In this document: piece after piece, positions 3,484 through 59,086 of the stretch
How the letters are laid out: every line of letters starts with the position of its first letter
Numbering within the stretch: the first letter of the stretch is position 1
Sequence record: MW233709
DNA from: Escherichia phage UPEC01
Length of the DNA: 64,000 bases
Direction: 5' to 3' (one strand)
The notes under the pieces: generated by a model
What the model was told of the DNA's origin: nothing
Seen by the model: the letters and a program-made list of their open reading frames with translations, nothing else
The model's database searches: none
Made by a program: the position numbers and the translations under genes

Positions 3484-3798
3484 ATGAAAACTTATCAAGA
3501 ATTTATTACTGAATCTACTCAACAACGTGTTGAAGGTGGTTATGTCTGGATTGAACAGTTAACCCCACCAAGTGAAACAAGCACTGGTTCGTGGAAAATT
3601 ACTGTTGATGGTCCTGGTGGAAAACGCAAGACTATTAAAGAAATTAAAGGTTATTATGACGAAGCTAAATCATGGGCTGGTAGTCATGTAATGCAGATTA
3701 AAATTGCAAACCCAGATAACGTTCATGCGGCAAAAGCGTTCCGTCGCATTGGTAATAAACTTTATGATGCGTTTTTGCGCGATTTCCCTAAAGCTTAA
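3484..3798 (+). CDS. internal head protein (IPII/IPIII-like) with capsid-targeting leader
   Basis: N-terminus MKTYQEFITE matches T4 internal-protein targeting sequence; ORF-track upstream extension rejected. Confidence 0.8.
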   Translation: MKTYQEFITESTQQRVEGGYVWIEQLTPPSETSTGSWKITVDGPGGKRKTIKEIKGYYDEAKSWAGSHVMQIKIANPDNVHAAKAFRRIGNKLYDAFLRDFPKA

Positions 3799-3811
3799 CT
3801 AAAGAGCCATT

Positions 3812-4075
3812 ATGAAAACTTATCAAGAATTTATTACTGAATCCGCTAAAGCTCCTGCTGGTTCCTTTAAAGTCCGCGCCTTCGCTGGTGATGCTGAAGA
3901 CTTTGGTACCATGAAGCGCAATGGTTATTCTTTCTTTGGCGGCGATGGCAAAGAAATTGTTACCTATGCAAAACGCCGCGAAATCGCATTTGTGGTTGCT
4001 GGTAAGAAAGTTGATGTTGACGATATTGAATGGGACTTTGAGACCTTTGGTATTGTTTCTGGCGGTAAAGCGTAA
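3812..4075 (+). CDS. internal head protein (IPII/IPIII-like) with capsid-targeting leader
   Basis: N-terminus MKTYQEFITE; tandem to previous internal-protein gene. Confidence 0.8.
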   Translation: MKTYQEFITESAKAPAGSFKVRAFAGDAEDFGTMKRNGYSFFGGDGKEIVTYAKRREIAFVVAGKKVDVDDIEWDFETFGIVSGGKA

Positions 4076-4217
4076 TAATTAAATGGGAATAACCTGGACC
4101 TCAATCCTGAGGGACTCCCGCCAACCTGTAATAAGGTCGAGCCCGCAGCGGTAATGGGTAATACAGGAAGGGATGAATTAATGTGCCAAGGAACGGCCCC
4201 ACAACTAAGAGACAACT

Positions 4218-4745
4218 ATGAAATTTTTAACTCCAATTTATCTAACCTTAATGCACGCCTTCGCTGAACGCGCCATTGAACGCTTAGATTCAGACCAATA
4301 CACCTGGTATGAACCTACTTCAAGAATGCAAGAGTTTGGTACTCTTAGACTTGATGGTGGAAGACAAACAGGTAAAACAAGTGCCATTGCACAGTTCGCC
4401 GCAGATTGGGTTTCTAAGGGTAATGATGTGATTGTTATGTCGAGTTCTTCGCATCGCTCACGAGAAATCTGTGATATAATAAAGCGGGTTTCTAAAGCAC
4501 AACCACATCTTAATGTTGAACGACCTGGTTTTGTTGTATATGATACCGTTCGTTCATTTTTAGACGAAGATAATTTCCATAAGTATCGTGGGTTATCTGT
4601 TACTCGATTATTGATTATTATCGAAGAGCCTATTCGCCTTCCAGCGATGGATAAGTTCTATGAAGCTTACCAGGTAATGCTGAATAAATTTATGTGTCAA
4701 GGTTCTAAACCTCTGCCGTTATTCTTTGTGATAGGAATGCAATAA
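4218..4745 (+). CDS. hypothetical small P-loop NTPase-like protein
   Basis: Walker A-like GGRQTGKTS and Walker B-like LLIIIEE. Confidence 0.55.
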   Translation: MKFLTPIYLTLMHAFAERAIERLDSDQYTWYEPTSRMQEFGTLRLDGGRQTGKTSAIAQFAADWVSKGNDVIVMSSSSHRSREICDIIKRVSKAQPHLNVERPGFVVYDTVRSFLDEDNFHKYRGLSVTRLLIIIEEPIRLPAMDKFYEAYQVMLNKFMCQGSKPLPLFFVIGMQ

Positions 4746-5041
4746 TGACTCATGAAGAGCTTTTTGACCAAATCTATTTTATTCCAAAGGTTAGGTCTGA
4801 AGATTTCGTAAAGAATTTTGAAATCTTTAATAAAGCAAATTTCTTTGAGTACGTGTTTTTGTCTGGACCTTTTATTGGGTCCAGATTTCGTTGCACTGCT
4901 CCGAGTATTCGCTTGATGAAGTTGGTTCCTTACTTTACTCTGGAATTTATTTCTGGACCATGTAGGGGTATTATAACTCGTAGCCTCCTGACGTATGACC
5001 AGGATGTGCGATTAATTAGTGACTGGAAAAAATATGTCTAA
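4745..5041 (+). CDS. hypothetical protein
   Basis: Intact ORF abutting upstream stop. Confidence 0.5.
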   Translation: MTHEELFDQIYFIPKVRSEDFVKNFEIFNKANFFEYVFLSGPFIGSRFRCTAPSIRLMKLVPYFTLEFISGPCRGIITRSLLTYDQDVRLISDWKKYV

Positions 5042-5248
5042 ACTGACGATTGAAGGCTCTGATGCAGCCTTGAAAAGATTCGTTGAATGGTTTAATGGCC
5101 CTGGTGAACAAGACTTTCTGGAAGTCTGGGACGGTGGTCAATGGAACGGTAAAGAACTGGTTTATCCTAGCACTTATATCTCCGTACAAGGTTGGACGGA
5201 TGGGCTTCGTTTGGTAGAATATGATATCGCAACCGGCGAGGAAGTGAA

Positions 5249-17397: not shown

Positions 17398-17711
17398 AAC
17401 AACGTTTAGCTGAAGATATTGCTTCAGCATCTAATACAGGTTTATTGGAATTTATTAAAGAAGCCGACCTTGCTGAAGTTGAACTGAATGGTAAGATTCA
17501 TGGCTGTGATGATTATAGCCAAGATATTCCTGATTGGAATGCTATTATTAAAATTGTCGAACGTCGTGAAAAAGCTTCTAAGAACGTTCCGAACTGTCCT
17601 ATGTGTGGAACCGAACAGGTCCAGTTGGTTCAATGGCGGCATAATCCGCTTCAATATAAATGCAGACATTGTAAACACCGATTTGAGCGAGAAGAAAATG
17701 GCAAAGCGTAA
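17394..17711 (+). CDS. hypothetical zinc-ribbon protein
   Basis: CPMCG...CRHCKH. Confidence 0.5.
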
Positions 17712-17940
17712 AGAATATGTTGAGACCGCTGAAAGAGTGGTCCGTGAATTAACTCTGGCTTATTATAAAGAACACGGTAAACTTCCGGATAGTTATTCAG
17801 TATTGAAATCTGCTTTAACTCGTTCATATAATAATATGCGTTCAGAAGTTTATGGTATTATGGTCAAACATAAAGAACAAACCGGTCAATACCCCGATTA
17901 TACTGAGACCTTCAAACAAGTATTAGGAATTAAGGAATAA
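17695..17940 (+). CDS. hypothetical protein
   Basis: ORF overlapping upstream stop. Confidence 0.45.
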
Positions 17941-20007: not shown

Positions 20008-20044
20008 AATAAATACCCTTATCTAATAATGGTAAGGGTTTATT
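20008..20044 (+). promoter_or_regulatory. late-promoter-like AATAAATA plus hairpin covering the gene 49 ribosome-binding site
   Basis: AATAAATACCC then stem CCCTTA/TAAGGG; same architecture as upstream of e. Confidence 0.5.
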
Positions 20045-20518
20045 ATGTTGTTGACTGGCAAATTATACAAAGAAGAAAAACAAAAACTTTATGATGCACA
20101 AGCTGGTAAGTGTCCAATTTGCCACCGTGATTTGGACTCCGATGTTCAGGCCAACCATCTTGACCATGACCACGAATTGAACGGGCCAAAAGCTGGTAAG
20201 GTTCGCGGGTTACTATGCAATCTGTGCAATGGAACAGAAGGACAAATGAAGCATAAGTTCAGCCGTTCGGGTCTAAAAGGTCGCAATGTTGACTACCTGG
20301 AATGGTTAGAGAGTTTGCTTGTCTATCTGAAATCTGATTATACCGAAAACAATATTCACCCTAATTTTGTGGCAGACAAAGCCAAAGAGTTCGGTCGTCT
20401 GGGGAAAGAAGAAATGATTCGGGAAATGCTTTTGAACGGTATGACTTATAATGAATCTGACACAAAAACACAATTAATGGCTTCATTTAAGAAGCAGCTT
20501 AGAAAGAGTTTAAAATGA
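20045..20518 (+). CDS. 49: endonuclease VII (Holliday-junction resolvase)
   Basis: Near-identical to recalled T4 gp49 (MLLTGKLYKEEKQK..CPICHR...). Confidence 0.93.
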   Translation: MLLTGKLYKEEKQKLYDAQAGKCPICHRDLDSDVQANHLDHDHELNGPKAGKVRGLLCNLCNGTEGQMKHKFSRSGLKGRNVDYLEWLESLLVYLKSDYTENNIHPNFVADKAKEFGRLGKEEMIREMLLNGMTYNESDTKTQLMASFKKQLRKSLK

Positions 20519-44296: not shown

Positions 44297-44462
44297 GATT
44301 TCCGTCTTCCAGATTTTTGAAGAATATGAAATCGTGTCGCAAGACCAAGAAGCAATCCATGCTATCGCTGATGATGGGGTTACCTGGATTATTCCGTTGT
44401 ATCATGAAGACACTTATGAAGTGACTGATGCAAATGGTGATAAAGCTATCTTCGTTGTATAA
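44271..44462 (+). CDS. hypothetical protein
   Basis: Intact ORF. Confidence 0.45.
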   Translation: MSAMCTGSKISVFQIFEEYEIVSQDQEAIHAIADDGVTWIIPLYHEDTYEVTDANGDKAIFVV

Positions 44463-44482
44463 ATAGCGGAAAGGGGGGTGTT

Positions 44483-44650
44483 ATGAAAACATTCAAAGAT
44501 TTTATCAACGAAGATATGGTTGCTGGTGATGCAGGTGGAAACCCAACTAATATCGCAACAGGTACCACTTCCGGGGCAGTTGTCAATAAAGGCCCTGAAC
44601 AAATCCCATCAAAAAAGCGTAAGAACAAAGACGATAAACCTACAGTATAA
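44483..44650 (+). CDS. small protein with internal-protein-like capsid-targeting leader (55 aa; not in ORF track)
   Basis: N-terminus MKTFKDFINE parallels MKTYQEFITE of the IP genes at 3484/3812; SD AAGGGGGG. Confidence 0.45.
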   Translation: MKTFKDFINEDMVAGDAGGNPTNIATGTTSGAVVNKGPEQIPSKKRKNKDDKPTV

Positions 44651-44669
44651 TGGTCCTCCGGGACCATTG
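44651..44669 (+). other. hairpin TGGTCC-TCCG-GGACCA upstream of gene 61
   Basis: 6-bp stem, no U-tract. Confidence 0.4.
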
Positions 44670-44682
44670 AAATGAGGAAACT

Positions 44683-45711
44683 ATGTCATATATTGATAGA
44701 GAATTTGCAGTCAGAGCTTTATCGTATCAACCACGTTATAGAGAAGTCACCGGGAGCACATTTAAAGCAAACTGTCGTTGCAAGGTTTGTGGGGACTCCC
44801 AGAAAGATTCACACAAGGCTCGATTCTGGGCGTATACTAATCCGGCCGATGGCGCGGTTTACGTGAAATGTTTTAACTGTGACTACTCCACGCATATAAG
44901 CAAATACATAAAAGAGTTTGAGCCGGATTTACACCGGGAATATATGGTTGAGAAGTATAAGGAGAATGCCTTTGGGCGACAACGCAATGAAGTCATTGAA
45001 ACTCCGAAAGAACCAGAAAAAACTCCGGTTATCGAACAGCTTGCTTTTTGTGAAAGACTCGATACTTTACCAGAAGCACATCCGATAATTAAGTATGTAA
45101 AAAGTCGATGTATTCCAAGCAATGTTTGGAATCGACTATGGTTTACAAACCAATGGCCCACATTAGTTAACTCCGTTAATCCTGGGACGTATAAGAATGA
45201 AACGAATGAACCACGCTTGGTTATTCCTATCTTCAACGGCAAAAAAGAAATCGAATCTTTCCAAGGACGAGCTCTTCGCAAAGATGCACCACAAAAATAT
45301 ATCACAATCAAAGCTCACCCAGAAGCTTCCAAAGTCTATGGCGTAGACAAGATTGATGAGCGTAAACGCGTATGGGTAATGGAAGGTCCGATTGATAGTT
45401 TGTTTATCCCTAACAGCATTGCGATAACTGGTGGAACATTGTCATTGGAAGCCGTTCCTTATCCAGAAACCAGAGTATGGGTAATGGACAACGAACCAAG
45501 ACATCCGGATACGATTAAACGTATGAAGAAGCTCGTTGAAGCTGGCGAAGCTGTTATGTTCTGGGACAATGCACCATGGCATACGAAAGACATAAATGAG
45601 ATGGTTAAATCAGAAGGAGCAACCCCTGAACAAATCGAATCATATATGGCTGATAACGTTGCCCAAGGATTGATGGCGAGAATGCGACTTTCGAAGTACG
45701 CAAAAGTTTAG
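44683..45711 (+). CDS. 61: DNA primase gp61
   Basis: Zinc ribbon CRCKVCGDS..CFNCDY; long matches to recalled T4 gp61. Confidence 0.95.
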   Translation: MSYIDREFAVRALSYQPRYREVTGSTFKANCRCKVCGDSQKDSHKARFWAYTNPADGAVYVKCFNCDYSTHISKYIKEFEPDLHREYMVEKYKENAFGRQRNEVIETPKEPEKTPVIEQLAFCERLDTLPEAHPIIKYVKSRCIPSNVWNRLWFTNQWPTLVNSVNPGTYKNETNEPRLVIPIFNGKKEIESFQGRALRKDAPQKYITIKAHPEASKVYGVDKIDERKRVWVMEGPIDSLFIPNSIAITGGTLSLEAVPYPETRVWVMDNEPRHPDTIKRMKKLVEAGEAVMFWDNAPWHTKDINEMVKSEGATPEQIESYMADNVAQGLMARMRLSKYAKV

Positions 45712-45908
45712 GAAGGGATTCCGGTAAAGTAACCAATAATAGAATGGATATGTTCCATTGTGACCTGAGGTAAGTGCACCCCTTGTGTTGCGGCGATGGG
45801 TACAACCAGTAAGTTCCACAGGAAAACATCAAGAGCTAAAAAGCCCATGATGAGCTTCTTGTCTTTCTTACTGGTTAATTTCCAAATCTGATAGAATAAT
45901 GTTCCCAT
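45708..45908 (-). CDS. small membrane protein, paralogue B (minus strand)
   Basis: Lies in a 490-bp gap with no + ORF; paralogous to 45917-46114. Confidence 0.5.
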   Translation of the reverse strand: MGTLFYQIWKLTSKKDKKLIMGFLALDVFLWNLLVVPIAATQGVHLPQVTMEHIHSIIGYFTGIPS

Positions 45909-45916
45909 AGTTCCAC

Positions 45917-46114
45917 CTATATAAGGCCGATTAATGCCAGTGAAACATCTACAACTGATTCGAGCGCGACGACTGGTAATATAACACCATGTGCCAATGC
46001 AATAGGGGCAACAATGAAATTCCAGAGTAGAACTAAACAGAGTACCGAAAGGACCAGAATCGTTCGCTTACGACTGCCTTTGATGGCTTGAATTAGACTA
46101 GATAGTTTTAGCAT
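45917..46114 (-). CDS. small membrane protein, paralogue A (minus strand)
   Basis: AGGAGG SD before ATG on minus strand; late-promoter-like CATAAATA upstream. Confidence 0.5.
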   Translation of the reverse strand: MLKLSSLIQAIKGSRKRTILVLSVLCLVLLWNFIVAPIALAHGVILPVVALESVVDVSLALIGLI

Positions 46115-46130
46115 ACATCCTCCTTTCTTG

Positions 46131-46138
46131 TATTTATG
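46131..46138 (-). promoter_or_regulatory. late-promoter-like CATAAATA on minus strand
   Basis: Reverse complement of TATTTATG 46131-46138. Confidence 0.35.
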
Positions 46139-46160
46139 CTTTAAACCAATACGATATAAT
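46137..46160 (+). promoter_or_regulatory. middle-promoter-like element upstream of gene 56
   Basis: TGCTTTA 46137-46143, 11-nt spacer, TATAAT 46155-46160. Confidence 0.4.
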
Positions 46161-46198
46161 TAACATACAAACAACATGAATTGATAAGGAAAAATATA

Positions 46199-46717
46199 AT
46201 GGCACATTTTAACGAATGTTCTCAACTGATTGCTGGTGTTGATAAAGCTCAAGGCGCTTATGATAATGCAATTTTTGAAGGCACTGACCCACTGCAAATT
46301 ATGCTTGATATGCAGAAATCGTTGCAGGTTCGTCTGGCTAAAGAAAAACCAGAATATAACGAACATCCTGATAACCTGGCGACTGCTGGTGAAGTTGTTA
46401 CCTGGCTCCGCAACCAGAAAGATTATATTGATGATGAATTCCGTGAACTGATTACTGCATTAGGTGGCATGTCCAATGGCGAGAAAGCTGCCTCGGCCGT
46501 ATGGAAGCCTTGGAAAGCACAACATGGCGAAATGCAGCAAACCCTAATTAATGATTTATCTCCTGAAGACCAGCTCGAAATTAAATTTGAGATGATTGAT
46601 ATCCTGCACTTTGTTCTGAATATGTTCCATGGCCTTGGACTGACTGCAGAAGAAATCTTTAAATTGTATTACCTGAAAAATGCTGAGAACTTTGCTCGTC
46701 AAGACCGAGGTTATTAA
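46199..46717 (+). CDS. 56: dCTP pyrophosphatase gp56-like
   Basis: Strong match to recalled T4 gp56 (MAHFNEC, DPLQIMLDMQ, EIFKLYYLKN..FARQDRGY). Confidence 0.9.
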   Translation: MAHFNECSQLIAGVDKAQGAYDNAIFEGTDPLQIMLDMQKSLQVRLAKEKPEYNEHPDNLATAGEVVTWLRNQKDYIDDEFRELITALGGMSNGEKAASAVWKPWKAQHGEMQQTLINDLSPEDQLEIKFEMIDILHFVLNMFHGLGLTAEEIFKLYYLKNAENFARQDRGY

Positions 46718-46998
46718 TGGCTCGTTTAAATAAACGTCAGCTTAAGAAAGCTCGCAAGAAATATATTAACGATATAATTGAAAATGTTAATACCGAAATC
46801 TTCGTAGAACTCTTATCTAATCAACTAAAACATTTATCTAAACATGAAATTGATATGAATACTGAAAATGCTAAAAATGTAATTGAAACTCATAATGCTT
46901 TTGCTAATGCAACAGCAGAATGGATGGCGAATCCTACTGCTGAAAATCTAGCTAAAATGACTGAAGCCAATAAAGCAGTTCAAGCCATCAAATTGTAA
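46717..46998 (+). CDS. hypothetical protein
   Basis: ATGA-coupled ORF. Confidence 0.5.
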   Translation: MARLNKRQLKKARKKYINDIIENVNTEIFVELLSNQLKHLSKHEIDMNTENAKNVIETHNAFANATAEWMANPTAENLAKMTEANKAVQAIKL

Positions 46999-47000
46999 GT

Positions 47001-47008
47001 TATAAATA
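47001..47008 (+). promoter_or_regulatory. late promoter TATAAATA upstream of soc
   Basis: Exact TATAAATA 32 nt before soc ATG. Confidence 0.55.
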
Positions 47009-47039
47009 CACCTGTAATTAAACAACAAAGGAGTTAATT

Positions 47040-47273
47040 ATGGGTGGTTTCGTTAATATCAAAACCTTTACGCATCCAGCTGGTGAAGGTAAAGAAGTTA
47101 AAGGTGTTGAAGTATCTGTTCCGTTTGAAATCTATTCAAATGAGCACCGTATTGCCAATGCTCATTATCAGACTTTTCCTTCCGAAAAGGCCGCTTATGT
47201 CACCGTAGCGTCTAGTGCAGCTGATTGGCGAACTAAGAACGCGGCGATGTTTACGCCTACCCCAGTAGTTTAA
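47040..47273 (+). CDS. soc: small outer capsid protein Soc
   Basis: AHYQTFPSEKAAY identical to recalled T4 Soc. Confidence 0.85.
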   Translation: MGGFVNIKTFTHPAGEGKEVKGVEVSVPFEIYSNEHRIANAHYQTFPSEKAAYVTVASSAADWRTKNAAMFTPTPVV

Positions 47274-57058: not shown

Positions 57059-58891
57059 ATGATGATTAATAATGAAATTAAAGTACTCTCGGACGTCGAG
57101 CATATCAAAAAACGTTCCGGGATGTATATTGGTTCCAGTTCAAATGAAGCGCATGAGCGATTCTTGTTTGGTGAATATAAGTCTGTAAGCTATGTTCCTG
57201 GTATTGTAAAACTGATTGATGAAATTATCGATAACTCTGTTGATGAAGCAATTCGCACCAGTTTTAAATTTGCCAATAAAATTGATGTTCAAATTAAAGA
57301 TAATCAGATTTCGGTTTCTGATAATGGTCGTGGTATTCCTCAAGCAATGGTTACAGACCAAAACGGTGAACAAATCCCTGGCCCTGTTGCAGCATGGACT
57401 ATTCCAAAAGCCGGTGGCAACTTCGGTGATGATGCTGAACGTAAAACTGGCGGGATGAATGGTGTCGGGTCTTCTCTGACCAATATTTTCTCTGTATTGT
57501 TCACCGGGATTACCTCTGATGGAGCAAACGAAATTACTGTTAACTGCTCCAACGGTATGGAAAACAAAGGTTGGTCCACCAAGAAATCTAAGGGCAAAGG
57601 TACAACTGTTATATTTGTTCCAGATTTTAGTCACTTTGAAGAAAATAGTCTGTCCCAGATTTATCTGGATATTACATTGGACCGTTTACAGACTCTCGCG
57701 GTTGTTTATCCGGATATTCAGTTCACCTTTAATGGTAAAAAGGTTGATGGTAATTTCAAGAAGTTCTCCAAGCAATTCGGAACCGAAGTTGTTATCCAGG
57801 AAACTGATACAGTATCAATGGCTTTTACGACCAGCCCGGATGGTTTCCGTCAGTTGACTTATGTCAACAACATTCATACAAAGAATGGCGGACACCACGT
57901 TGAATGTGTTATGGATGATATCTGTGAACACCTTCAGCCTGCGATTAAGCGCAAATATAAAGGCATCGAGGTGACCAAGGCACGAGTTAAAGAATGCCTC
58001 ACCATGCTTATGTTCATCCGCGATATGAGCAACATGCGATTTGATTCCCAGACCAAGGAGCGATTGACTTCTCCGGCTGGTGAAATTCGAAATCACATTA
58101 AGATTGATGCTAAGAAAATCGCACAAGCTATTCTGAAAAATGAACCGCTGATTATGCCGATTGTTGAAGCTGCATTGGCTCGTAAATTGGCTGCAGAGAA
58201 AGCAGCAGAGACCAAGGCGAATAAGAAAGCTTCGAAGGCCAAGGTGCAGAAACACATCAAGGCAAACGAATGGGGCAATGATAAGCTGGAAACGACTCTA
58301 TTCCTGACCGAAGGGGATTCTGCAACTGGTCCATTTATCAAGGTTCGCGACCGTGAATTGCAAGGTGCTTATCCATTACGTGGTAAGTTTAAAAACACAT
58401 GGGGTCTGAAAGCTGTTGAAGTTATGAAGAACGCTGAAGCCTTTGATGTGTGTGCAATTACTGGGTTAACGATTGGACAACCGGCCGAGAATATGAATTA
58501 CCGAAACATTGCTATCATGACAGATGCGGATGTGGATGGTGTCGGTAGTATCTATCCATCGTTATTGGCGTTTTTCAGTAACTGGCCAGAGTTGTTCCAT
58601 GAAGGACGAATTCGCTTTGTGAAAACACCTGTTATTATTGCACAGCTCAAAGATAAACAAGAATGGTTCTATTCTCTTCCTGACTATGAAGAAGCTAAGG
58701 ATAAACTTCCGAAGCACACCATCCGATATATCAAGGGGCTTGGTTCTCTGGAAGATTCCGAGTACAAACGCGTATTGCTCGAACCGGTATTCGAAGTTGT
58801 TCAATTGCCCGACAACTGGAAAGAACTGTTCGAAATGCTATTCGGTAAAGATTCCCAGCAGCGTAAAGACTGGATGAATGCGACGCTATAA
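57059..58891 (+). CDS. 39: DNA topoisomerase II large subunit (fused 39+60 form)
   Basis: 610 aa continuous; GHKL ATPase motifs (EIIDNSVDE, GRGIP); no gene-60-type interruption. Confidence 0.95.
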   Translation: MMINNEIKVLSDVEHIKKRSGMYIGSSSNEAHERFLFGEYKSVSYVPGIVKLIDEIIDNSVDEAIRTSFKFANKIDVQIKDNQISVSDNGRGIPQAMVTDQNGEQIPGPVAAWTIPKAGGNFGDDAERKTGGMNGVGSSLTNIFSVLFTGITSDGANEITVNCSNGMENKGWSTKKSKGKGTTVIFVPDFSHFEENSLSQIYLDITLDRLQTLAVVYPDIQFTFNGKKVDGNFKKFSKQFGTEVVIQETDTVSMAFTTSPDGFRQLTYVNNIHTKNGGHHVECVMDDICEHLQPAIKRKYKGIEVTKARVKECLTMLMFIRDMSNMRFDSQTKERLTSPAGEIRNHIKIDAKKIAQAILKNEPLIMPIVEAALARKLAAEKAAETKANKKASKAKVQKHIKANEWGNDKLETTLFLTEGDSATGPFIKVRDRELQGAYPLRGKFKNTWGLKAVEVMKNAEAFDVCAITGLTIGQPAENMNYRNIAIMTDADVDGVGSIYPSLLAFFSNWPELFHEGRIRFVKTPVIIAQLKDKQEWFYSLPDYEEAKDKLPKHTIRYIKGLGSLEDSEYKRVLLEPVFEVVQLPDNWKELFEMLFGKDSQQRKDWMNATL

Positions 58892-58933
58892 ATAGATACG
58901 GGAGAATATTCTCCCGTCTTATAGGAGAAGTCC

Positions 58934-59086
58934 ATGAAAAAGTGGTGGGTTACGTTGTCAAATGGCGAATACGGTTATCTGTGGGCCGATACTAAACCCC
59001 TGTTTGCATCCTTTGTCACCATTATGTGCGAGACCTGGGATGGTGAATACTATACCGCGTATGGGCAAGTCTATAAAGTTGAGTAG
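58934..59086 (+). CDS. hypothetical small protein (50 aa; not in ORF track)
   Basis: Read manually; followed by terminator. Confidence 0.4.
   Translation: MKKWWVTLSNGEYGYLWADTKPLFASFVTIMCETWDGEYYTAYGQVYKVE

Follow-up and report, generated by a model that had tools for sequence, protein, structure and literature searches.

The 64,000-nucleotide stretch of Escherichia phage UPEC01 analyzed here (sequence record MW233709; hereafter the window) carries two small genes, A and B, on the minus strand between genes 61 and 56. The best explanation overall, to which we give a probability of about 0.6, is that they are a two-gene late operon for divergent inner-membrane peptides of the Dam.1 family that have a role in conflict. 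Both open reading frames (ORFs) are conserved protein-coding genes under purifying selection, and A and B belong to two old clades of the family that were stacked by lateral exchange, with no duplication. The family is already catalogued (dam.1 of phage T4T, RB69ORF029w, PHROG 2024), although this was missed in the preliminary description of the window; what is new here is the double-type (A+B) arrangement within a known, uncharacterized family. The source of the window is a Gaprivervirus, a T4-like phage in Tevenvirinae; over 44600-46800 it shares 98.7% identity with Escherichia phage TH41 and 96.9% with vB_EcoM_VR20. The two genes are as follows.

45917..46114, minus strand: gene A, type-A member of the Dam.1 / PHROG 2024 family, 65 amino acids (ORF; PHROG 2024, E 1.8e-26)
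45708..45908, minus strand: gene B, type-B member of the Dam.1 / PHROG 2024 family, 66 amino acids (ORF; PHROG 2024, E 6e-28)

Residues 1-65 of A matched the 65-position PHROG 2024 profile, as did residues 1-64 of B. The two proteins had been said to align with each other, which was borne out by these full-length matches and by BLASTP (E=2e-7 over the stretch quoted in the preliminary description). The profile is labeled 'unknown function', and its members include RB69ORF029w, RB32ORF030w and 'dam.1' of T4T (HM137666). By tblastn, type-A relatives were detected in 692 phage records, mostly of Tequatrovirus, and type-B relatives in 126. An intact but unannotated 66-amino-acid ORF of the family is also present in T4 itself (NC_000866.4 / AF158101.6) at 17738-17938 on the plus strand, between dam and 61. 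This T4 member is the dam.1 of T4T (HM137666) and is named 'hypothetical protein' in several newer T4 records. Neither dam.1, ORF029w, ORF030w nor phrog_2024 was mentioned in the literature searched, and a T4 omics paper did not address unannotated ORFs.

The position of the gene is also conserved. In every T4-like genus checked (Tequatrovirus, Mosigvirus, Gaprivervirus, Dhakavirus, Kanagawavirus, Mosugukvirus and Gelderlandvirus, together with Klebsiella phages and metagenomic T4-like contigs), the gene lies opposite the early-gene strand and converges on the end of gene 61, which it abuts or overlaps by 24 nt at most. The neighbor on its other side is variable and may be 56, dam, a homing endonuclease gene or a small ORF. 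Between B and its counterparts in Dhakavirus JS98, Klebsiella phage Marfa and others, 41 of the 66 third codon positions differed and 5-10 second positions did, at a protein identity of 74-80% despite saturation at synonymous sites. Where synonymous sites were unsaturated, the ratio of nonsynonymous to synonymous substitution rates (dN/dS) of type B was 0.05-0.19 (0.047 against VR25), and that of the T4 copy against vB_SsoM_113 was 0.16. Conservation in related genomes had been named in advance as a test of the two ORFs; both are conserved across T4-like genera.

GenBank product names given to members of the family are erratic: they include 'holin family protein', 'Holin', 'dCTP pyrophosphatase', 'DNA packaging ATPase', 'thymidylate synthase' and 'putative head morphogenesis protein'. 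None is supported by any family match, and the names look like an annotation error passing between records. They should not be propagated.

The preliminary description had called A and B a paralogous pair and had left it to comparison whether the pair was conserved or duplicated. They are indeed paralogous and conserved, but the idea of a tandem duplication did not hold, as each resembles genes of other genera more than it does its neighbor. In the identity matrix and tree, the two types fall into separate clades: A and B share 28% of residues, whereas A is 51% identical to the T4 copy and 49% identical to RB69ORF029w, and B groups with copies from JS98, Marfa, Kanagawavirus and similar phages at 57-80% identity (74-80% for the single copies of JS98 and Marfa). 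T4, RB69 and JS98 have one copy each, and the phage studied here has one member of each clade. A recent tandem duplication within this phage lineage could explain why two homologous ORFs stand side by side on one strand with 8 nt between them. However, each of the two is far closer to genes of other genera than to its 28% identical neighbor, VR5, although placed within the group of close relatives, has B only, and a Mosigvirus, ESCO47, has the two types the other way around, B being upstream and A adjoining gene 61. We regard such a duplication as scarcely credible. In vB_EcoM_ESCO47 the two ORFs overlap by 8 nt (positions 1801-2194 of its stretch), and this is a second, independent A+B stacking. 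In both double-copy phages, the copy on the gene 61 side is of the type resident in relatives and the incoming type is nearer the promoter.

Type B has also been lost. Among close relatives, it is frameshifted in VR20 and reduced to a remnant in SP18 and EAWsc9, and in RZ its 5′ part has been lost beside an inserted homing endonuclease gene. Such exchange, stacking and loss are the behavior of an exchangeable accessory gene with alternative specificities.

The homing endonuclease gene of RZ (positions 1309-2058 of its stretch) directly follows gene 61 with a 4-nt overlap, and the interval between 61 and 56 is a hot spot for genes of this kind, which occur there in RZ, DK-13, Kosakonia phage 305 and PEi20 and, as segF, in T4. 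Family members are disrupted by frameshifts in T4_ev240 (positions 2411-2608 of its stretch) and, for type B, in VR20 (about 4254-4307 of its stretch). Both frameshifts are located within or close to the A-rich sequence coding for the Lys-rich, basic N-terminus, and the one in T4_ev240 shortens a run of six A's to five. They may be real inactivation or homopolymer sequencing error.

The following promoter-like and ribosome-binding elements accompany the pair.

46131..46138, minus strand: late-promoter-like element CATAAATA, matching the T4 consensus TATAAATA (-13 to -6) at 7 of 8 positions
46119..46124, minus strand: Shine-Dalgarno sequence AGGAGG of A, 4 nt 5′ of the ATG
45913..45918, minus strand: Shine-Dalgarno-like sequence AGGTGG of B, overlapping the TAG stop codon of A
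46137..46160, plus strand: middle-promoter-like element of gene 56, with a MotA box TGCTTTA (46137-46143), an 11-nt spacer and TATAAT (46155-46160)

The late-promoter-like motif and the AGGAGG that had been placed before A are both there (read from 46138 to 46131 and from 46124 to 46119 on the minus strand), and so is the plus-strand middle-promoter-like element of gene 56 described for the same stretch, which stands back-to-back with the late-type motif and shares 2 nt with it. In essentially every lineage, the gene is preceded by a conserved NATAAATA motif and then a strong ribosome-binding site, although the flanking sequences diverge. Of 23 upstream regions (about 12 distinct sequences, as close relatives are included), 22 have ATAAATA at a distance of 13-22 nt from the start codon, compared with a chance expectation of about 0.5% per region, and in the same 22 it preceded a GGAGG-type ribosome-binding site by 6-12 nt. 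A Shine-Dalgarno sequence of the GGAGG type was present in every lineage examined. The base before ATAAATA, at -13, may be any of T, A, C and G, and the flanks of different lineages do not align. According to Nolan et al. 2006 (PMC1524935), late promoters of T4-like phages show poor conservation of the T at -13. The T4 copy has GATAAATA at 17,709-17,716, for which a plus-strand 5′ end at 17,720-17,724 is predicted.

Within the window, ATAAATA occurs three times on the minus strand and six times on the plus strand. Five of the six plus-strand copies are just 5′ of an ORF start, including those of the late genes e (AATAAATA) and soc (TATAAATA), whose motifs stand at distances from the start codon similar to that of A. 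Here B lacks a promoter motif, whereas in phages with B only the gene has its own NATAAATA motif and AGGAGG. Given this lack and the gap of only 8 nt between the two ORFs, A and B would form one two-gene late operon. Late, gp55-type transcription of the pair is thus a prediction that is well supported by comparison.

Several observations concern other promoters of the region. Likely late promoters lie inside the early region on the plus strand at 2444-2475, 20009-20048, 44459-44485, 47002-47042 and 58888-58937. The ORFs behind the plus-strand ATAAATA copies are e (motif followed by a hairpin), soc, a 61.1-like ORF at 44483 and two others. Two adjacent soc genes (soca and socb; positions 3563-4028 of its stretch) are annotated in SP18, and there is one soc in VR20 and in the window. 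The middle promoter of gene 56 was judged against the established T4 middle-promoter consensus. An old T4 record (X01416) gives a mot-box promoter upstream of 'gene 69', now read as 56 plus segF, and the promoter region of T4 gene 56 is annotated as the replication origin oriA.

The pair is flanked by two genes on the opposite strand.

44683..45711, plus strand: gene 61, DNA primase, convergent neighbor (PHROG 47, E 6.7e-95; labeled gene 61 in VR20 and SP18)
46199..46717, plus strand: gene 56, dCTPase/dUTPase, divergent neighbor (PHROG 173 and Pfam dUTPase_2; labeled gene 56 in relatives)

What the preliminary description had said of the layout proved accurate. The two tandem minus-strand ORFs of 65 and 66 amino acids lie between 61 and 56 exactly as claimed. 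The gap of 487 bp (45712-46198) holds no plus-strand ORF longer than 31 amino acids. The TAA stop codon of B (minus strand, 45708-45710) overlaps the stop codon of gene 61 (45709-45711), and therefore B and 61 are truly convergent, as had been stated. The TAG stop codon of A is at 45917-45919, leaving 8 nt between the two ORFs. The further claim that these are the only credible minus-strand genes also stood at the level at which it was examined: none of ten other minus-strand ORFs in plus-strand gaps matched any PHROG. Genes sp, dmd and 61.4 are among the neighbors of the pair, and RB69 has imm and imm.1 near it in addition.

A simple scan for terminators between the convergent genes gave nothing convincing, and late RNA should therefore run antisense into gene 61. 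This raises an alternative in which the ORFs are incidental and the product is an antisense RNA made late to silence read-through from 61 and 56; with no terminator, the minus-strand RNA would enter 61, and early plus-strand transcripts would cover the pair. Against such a reading, the substitution pattern is of the protein type (41 of 66 third positions; dN/dS 0.05-0.19), every lineage retains a strong ribosome-binding site, and the residue motif described below is kept in homologs of 25-30% identity, including those in non-T4 contexts that have no gene 61. An Rfam scan of 45500-46400 also gave no match. An RNA product in place of the proteins is extremely improbable, although an antisense side effect may exist alongside a protein role. 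A preprint on differential RNA sequencing of T4 (bioRxiv 10.1101/2024.04.04.588121) reports 22 antisense transcription starts.

The predicted proteins have the same architecture in AlphaFold2 models of A (mean pLDDT, the predicted local distance difference test score, 72) and B (mean pLDDT 81), in which a short helix at the N-terminus (residues 4-10 in A) is followed by a long one at 14-41 and, after a loop at 42-50, by a third at 51-62. The N-terminus has 5-8 Lys/Arg residues, and residues 18-41, approximately, are strongly hydrophobic. In A, five Lys/Arg and no acidic residues precede the transmembrane helix, and no basic and two acidic residues follow it. Over the last 25 or so residues of the proteins there are 0-1 basic and 1-2 acidic residues, with an end that is hydrophobic in A and polar but uncharged in B. 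Applying the positive-inside rule to the basic N-terminus, we predict a single-pass inner-membrane protein with the N-terminus in, the C-terminus out and a periplasmic tail of about 25 residues. A second membrane span is unlikely as a feature of the family, because the amphipathic C-terminal helix, though hydrophobic in type A, is polar in type B. Of the earlier description of a basic N-terminus followed by hydrophobic helices, the basic N-terminus and the small predicted membrane protein remain; the plural is doubtful, as there is one clear span.

The conserved core of the family consists of W31, N32, P37, A39, G43, L46, P47 and V49 and an acidic residue at about position 52. These positions are invariant or nearly so in three alignments and are present in both A and B. 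The resulting motif, WN-x4-P-x-A-x3-G-x2-LP-x-V-x2-(E/D), occupies the predicted periplasmic end of the helix and the segment that follows. In addition, the tail of type A (LDTVVDLA in RB69, LDTFVDLA in T4 and LESVVDVS here) resembles the TonB-box pattern (D/E-T-x-V-V), which could point to a periplasmic partner.

Two other topologies were considered. A lipoprotein or a cleavable signal peptide was ruled out, as there is no lipobox and type B lacks Cys. A releasable signal-anchor (SAR) domain was ruled out by the five or more basic residues before the transmembrane helix.

Searches for characterized relatives were negative. Pfam and NCBIfam scans of A and B gave no match at E<=1 (or <=10), and those of distant homologs likewise gave none. 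When A, B and three distant homologs were compared with the defense models of PADLOC-DB, none had a match at E<=1. A Foldseek search with the AlphaFold2 model had no match in the PDB, and matches in BFVD were to members of the same family only.

Small size, a predicted membrane location with at least one transmembrane domain (at about 18-41) and a late-type promoter are also what would be expected of a genuine holin or pinholin making membrane lesions on its own, and family members are labeled 'Holin' or 'holin family protein' in EAWsc9 and OE5505. However, the peptides have one clear transmembrane segment only, their C-terminus is predicted to be outside and is not a charged cytoplasmic tail, and no holin family in Pfam or NCBIfam was matched even at E<=1. 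Nor does an endolysin gene adjoin the gene in any T4-like phage examined; in the window, gene e is about 43 kb away. Gene t encodes the required holin of T4, and since lysis fails in t-null mutants, no other holin can suffice. We therefore consider a holin very unlikely, and of the roles suggested in the preliminary description (lysis timing, superinfection exclusion or holin-like) it is the weakest.

Another possibility is that the peptides are late accessories in lysis timing, made together with holin T. They would bind T or the antiholin RI, in the membrane or the periplasm, and so tune holin triggering or lysis inhibition, in the manner of an antiholin or a pro-holin factor. The late-type promoter, like that of gene t, the small size, the single span and the tail facing the periplasm all fit, and there are again the two records labeled 'holin', although these labels have no support from a family match. 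Against this, no sequence likeness to RI, T or any Pfam lysis family was found, and the stacking of two types in either order and the repeated loss of one are not explained. Hunts for rapid-lysis (r) mutants of T4 mapped rI, rII, rIII, rIV (sp) and rV (t), and we know of no r mutant mapped between dam and 61 over decades of such hunts. A strong role in lysis inhibition is hard to square with this map, and a lysis-timing function, although the main rival of the conflict role favored below, is on the whole unlikely.

An exhaustive hidden Markov model search of 1.84 billion representative proteins yielded only 16 clusters at E<1e-3, all of 33-70 amino acids, and therefore no larger or annotated relative that could lend a function. 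The 13 sequences retrieved from these clusters are 50-70 amino acids long and have the same architecture; one fragment of 33 amino acids is among the clusters. Outside T4-like phages, E. coli prophages inserted at two chromosomal sites end with a copy of the gene, which follows tail-tip, lysozyme and GIY-YIG genes. One homolog is just upstream of a gene with a RelA_SpoT domain. Three phage contigs, unrelated and outside the T4-like group, have the gene order tail fiber, a 94-amino-acid protein, endonuclease VII and the homolog, with a 4-nt overlap in two of them.

The modules of homolog and endonuclease VII in the three contigs are at 3553-4210, 4543-5159 and 4534-5153. In an E. coli prophage with a family member, genes for a SMODS nucleotidyltransferase and a SLATT-domain protein, resembling a CBASS-like pair, adjoin the terminase genes (1-906).

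The endonuclease VII contigs bear on another possibility, that the peptides are membrane helpers of a late DNA or assembly process, for example in anchoring or regulating a DNA-handling enzyme or head assembly at the inner membrane. In addition to these three contigs, late timing fits such a role, and the gene is tied to the primase gene 61 by abutting or overlapping ends in every T4-like genus checked. However, the link to gene 61 is convergent, hence there is no shared transcription, and the genes on the other side vary freely. Swapping, stacking and loss would be unusual for a core assembly factor, and in the E. coli prophages the gene directly upstream of the copy does not encode an enzyme of this kind. 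An assembly helper thus appears quite improbable.

We favor a conflict peptide because of the exchange, stacking and loss of the two types, the presence of sp, dmd and 61.4 nearby (with imm in RB69) and the homologs at prophage ends. In the mechanism proposed here, a gp55-dependent late promoter would start transcription near 46125 on the minus strand, and the RNA would pass through A and B and then run antisense into gene 61. Each product would insert with its basic N-terminus in the cytoplasm, one helix at about 18-41 and an acidic, amphipathic tail of about 25 residues in the periplasm. The family motif at the periplasmic end of the helix may be a surface that binds a partner, and the peptide, dispensable to the phage, would block this inner-membrane partner. 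The two types would differ in specificity, which would account for their exchange, stacking and loss. That the peptides are dispensable conflict peptides, acting in exclusion or counter-defense, has as a class just short of an even chance in our judgment. As to the partner, an entry or exclusion target used by competing phages is a tentative possibility, and a membrane-acting host defense effector triggered late in infection is a more doubtful one.

Several points weigh against a conflict role. The main one is the promoter: the known exclusion and counter-defense genes of T4 are early genes, and a late-only promoter fits such a role poorly. The promoter itself departs from consensus at -13, where the base is C here and G or A elsewhere. 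Constraint on type A within Gaprivervirus appears weak (dN/dS 0.34-0.64), although very few substitutions underlie these values. The position of the homolog after endonuclease VII in a late operon in three contigs is not explained by a conflict model. Finally, the peptides show no likeness to characterized families in Pfam, NCBIfam, PADLOC or the PDB.

A bolder view is that Dam.1-type peptides, including the overlooked T4 gene, are an unrecognized class of late, type-specific membrane 'immunity' determinants. The A and B specificities would then decide late conflicts at the inner membrane, for example by neutralizing an abortive-infection effector or a competitor's route of entry. We offer this as speculation and think it rather improbable.

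The pair matters beyond this phage. A gene that is conserved in every enterobacterial T-even genus examined is missing from the T4 reference annotation, despite the intense study of T4, and the pair described here stands almost alone against the direction of some 60 kb of early genes. If late and membrane-acting, the peptides would be a new component of the late envelope biology of T-even phages, be it lysis control, exclusion or counter-defense. The stacking and loss of the two types is also a small natural experiment on accessory specificity genes that move between co-infecting phages.

The pair shares features with several known systems. Like holins and antiholins (T, RI and RIII of T4, class II holins and pinholins), A and B have a late signal, are small and are predicted in the inner membrane, and RI also has a segment facing the periplasm. 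They differ from RI, which has a SAR domain, in that their basic N-terminus argues against a releasable signal-anchor. Imm and Sp of T-even phages share with the Dam.1 pair the character of small envelope proteins that are accessory, exchanged and encoded in the same neighborhood (imm in RB69). However, imm and sp lie on the opposite strand and are expressed early, whereas the Dam.1 family has a late-type promoter only, and there is no likeness in sequence or fold. Temperate phages carry small membrane 'moron' genes after their tail genes, such as HK97 gp15 and Cor of phi80 and N15, and the temperate-phage homologs of Dam.1 likewise are located after tail-tip genes or at prophage ends. The closest counterparts are Dam.1 of T4T, RB69ORF029w and RB32ORF030w, which have the same motif, a length of 60-70 amino acids, the same position and orientation and the same NATAAATA motif with a ribosome-binding site. 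The copies in T4 and RB69 are single, whereas the pair in the window is a two-gene unit whose type A is only about 50% identical to them.

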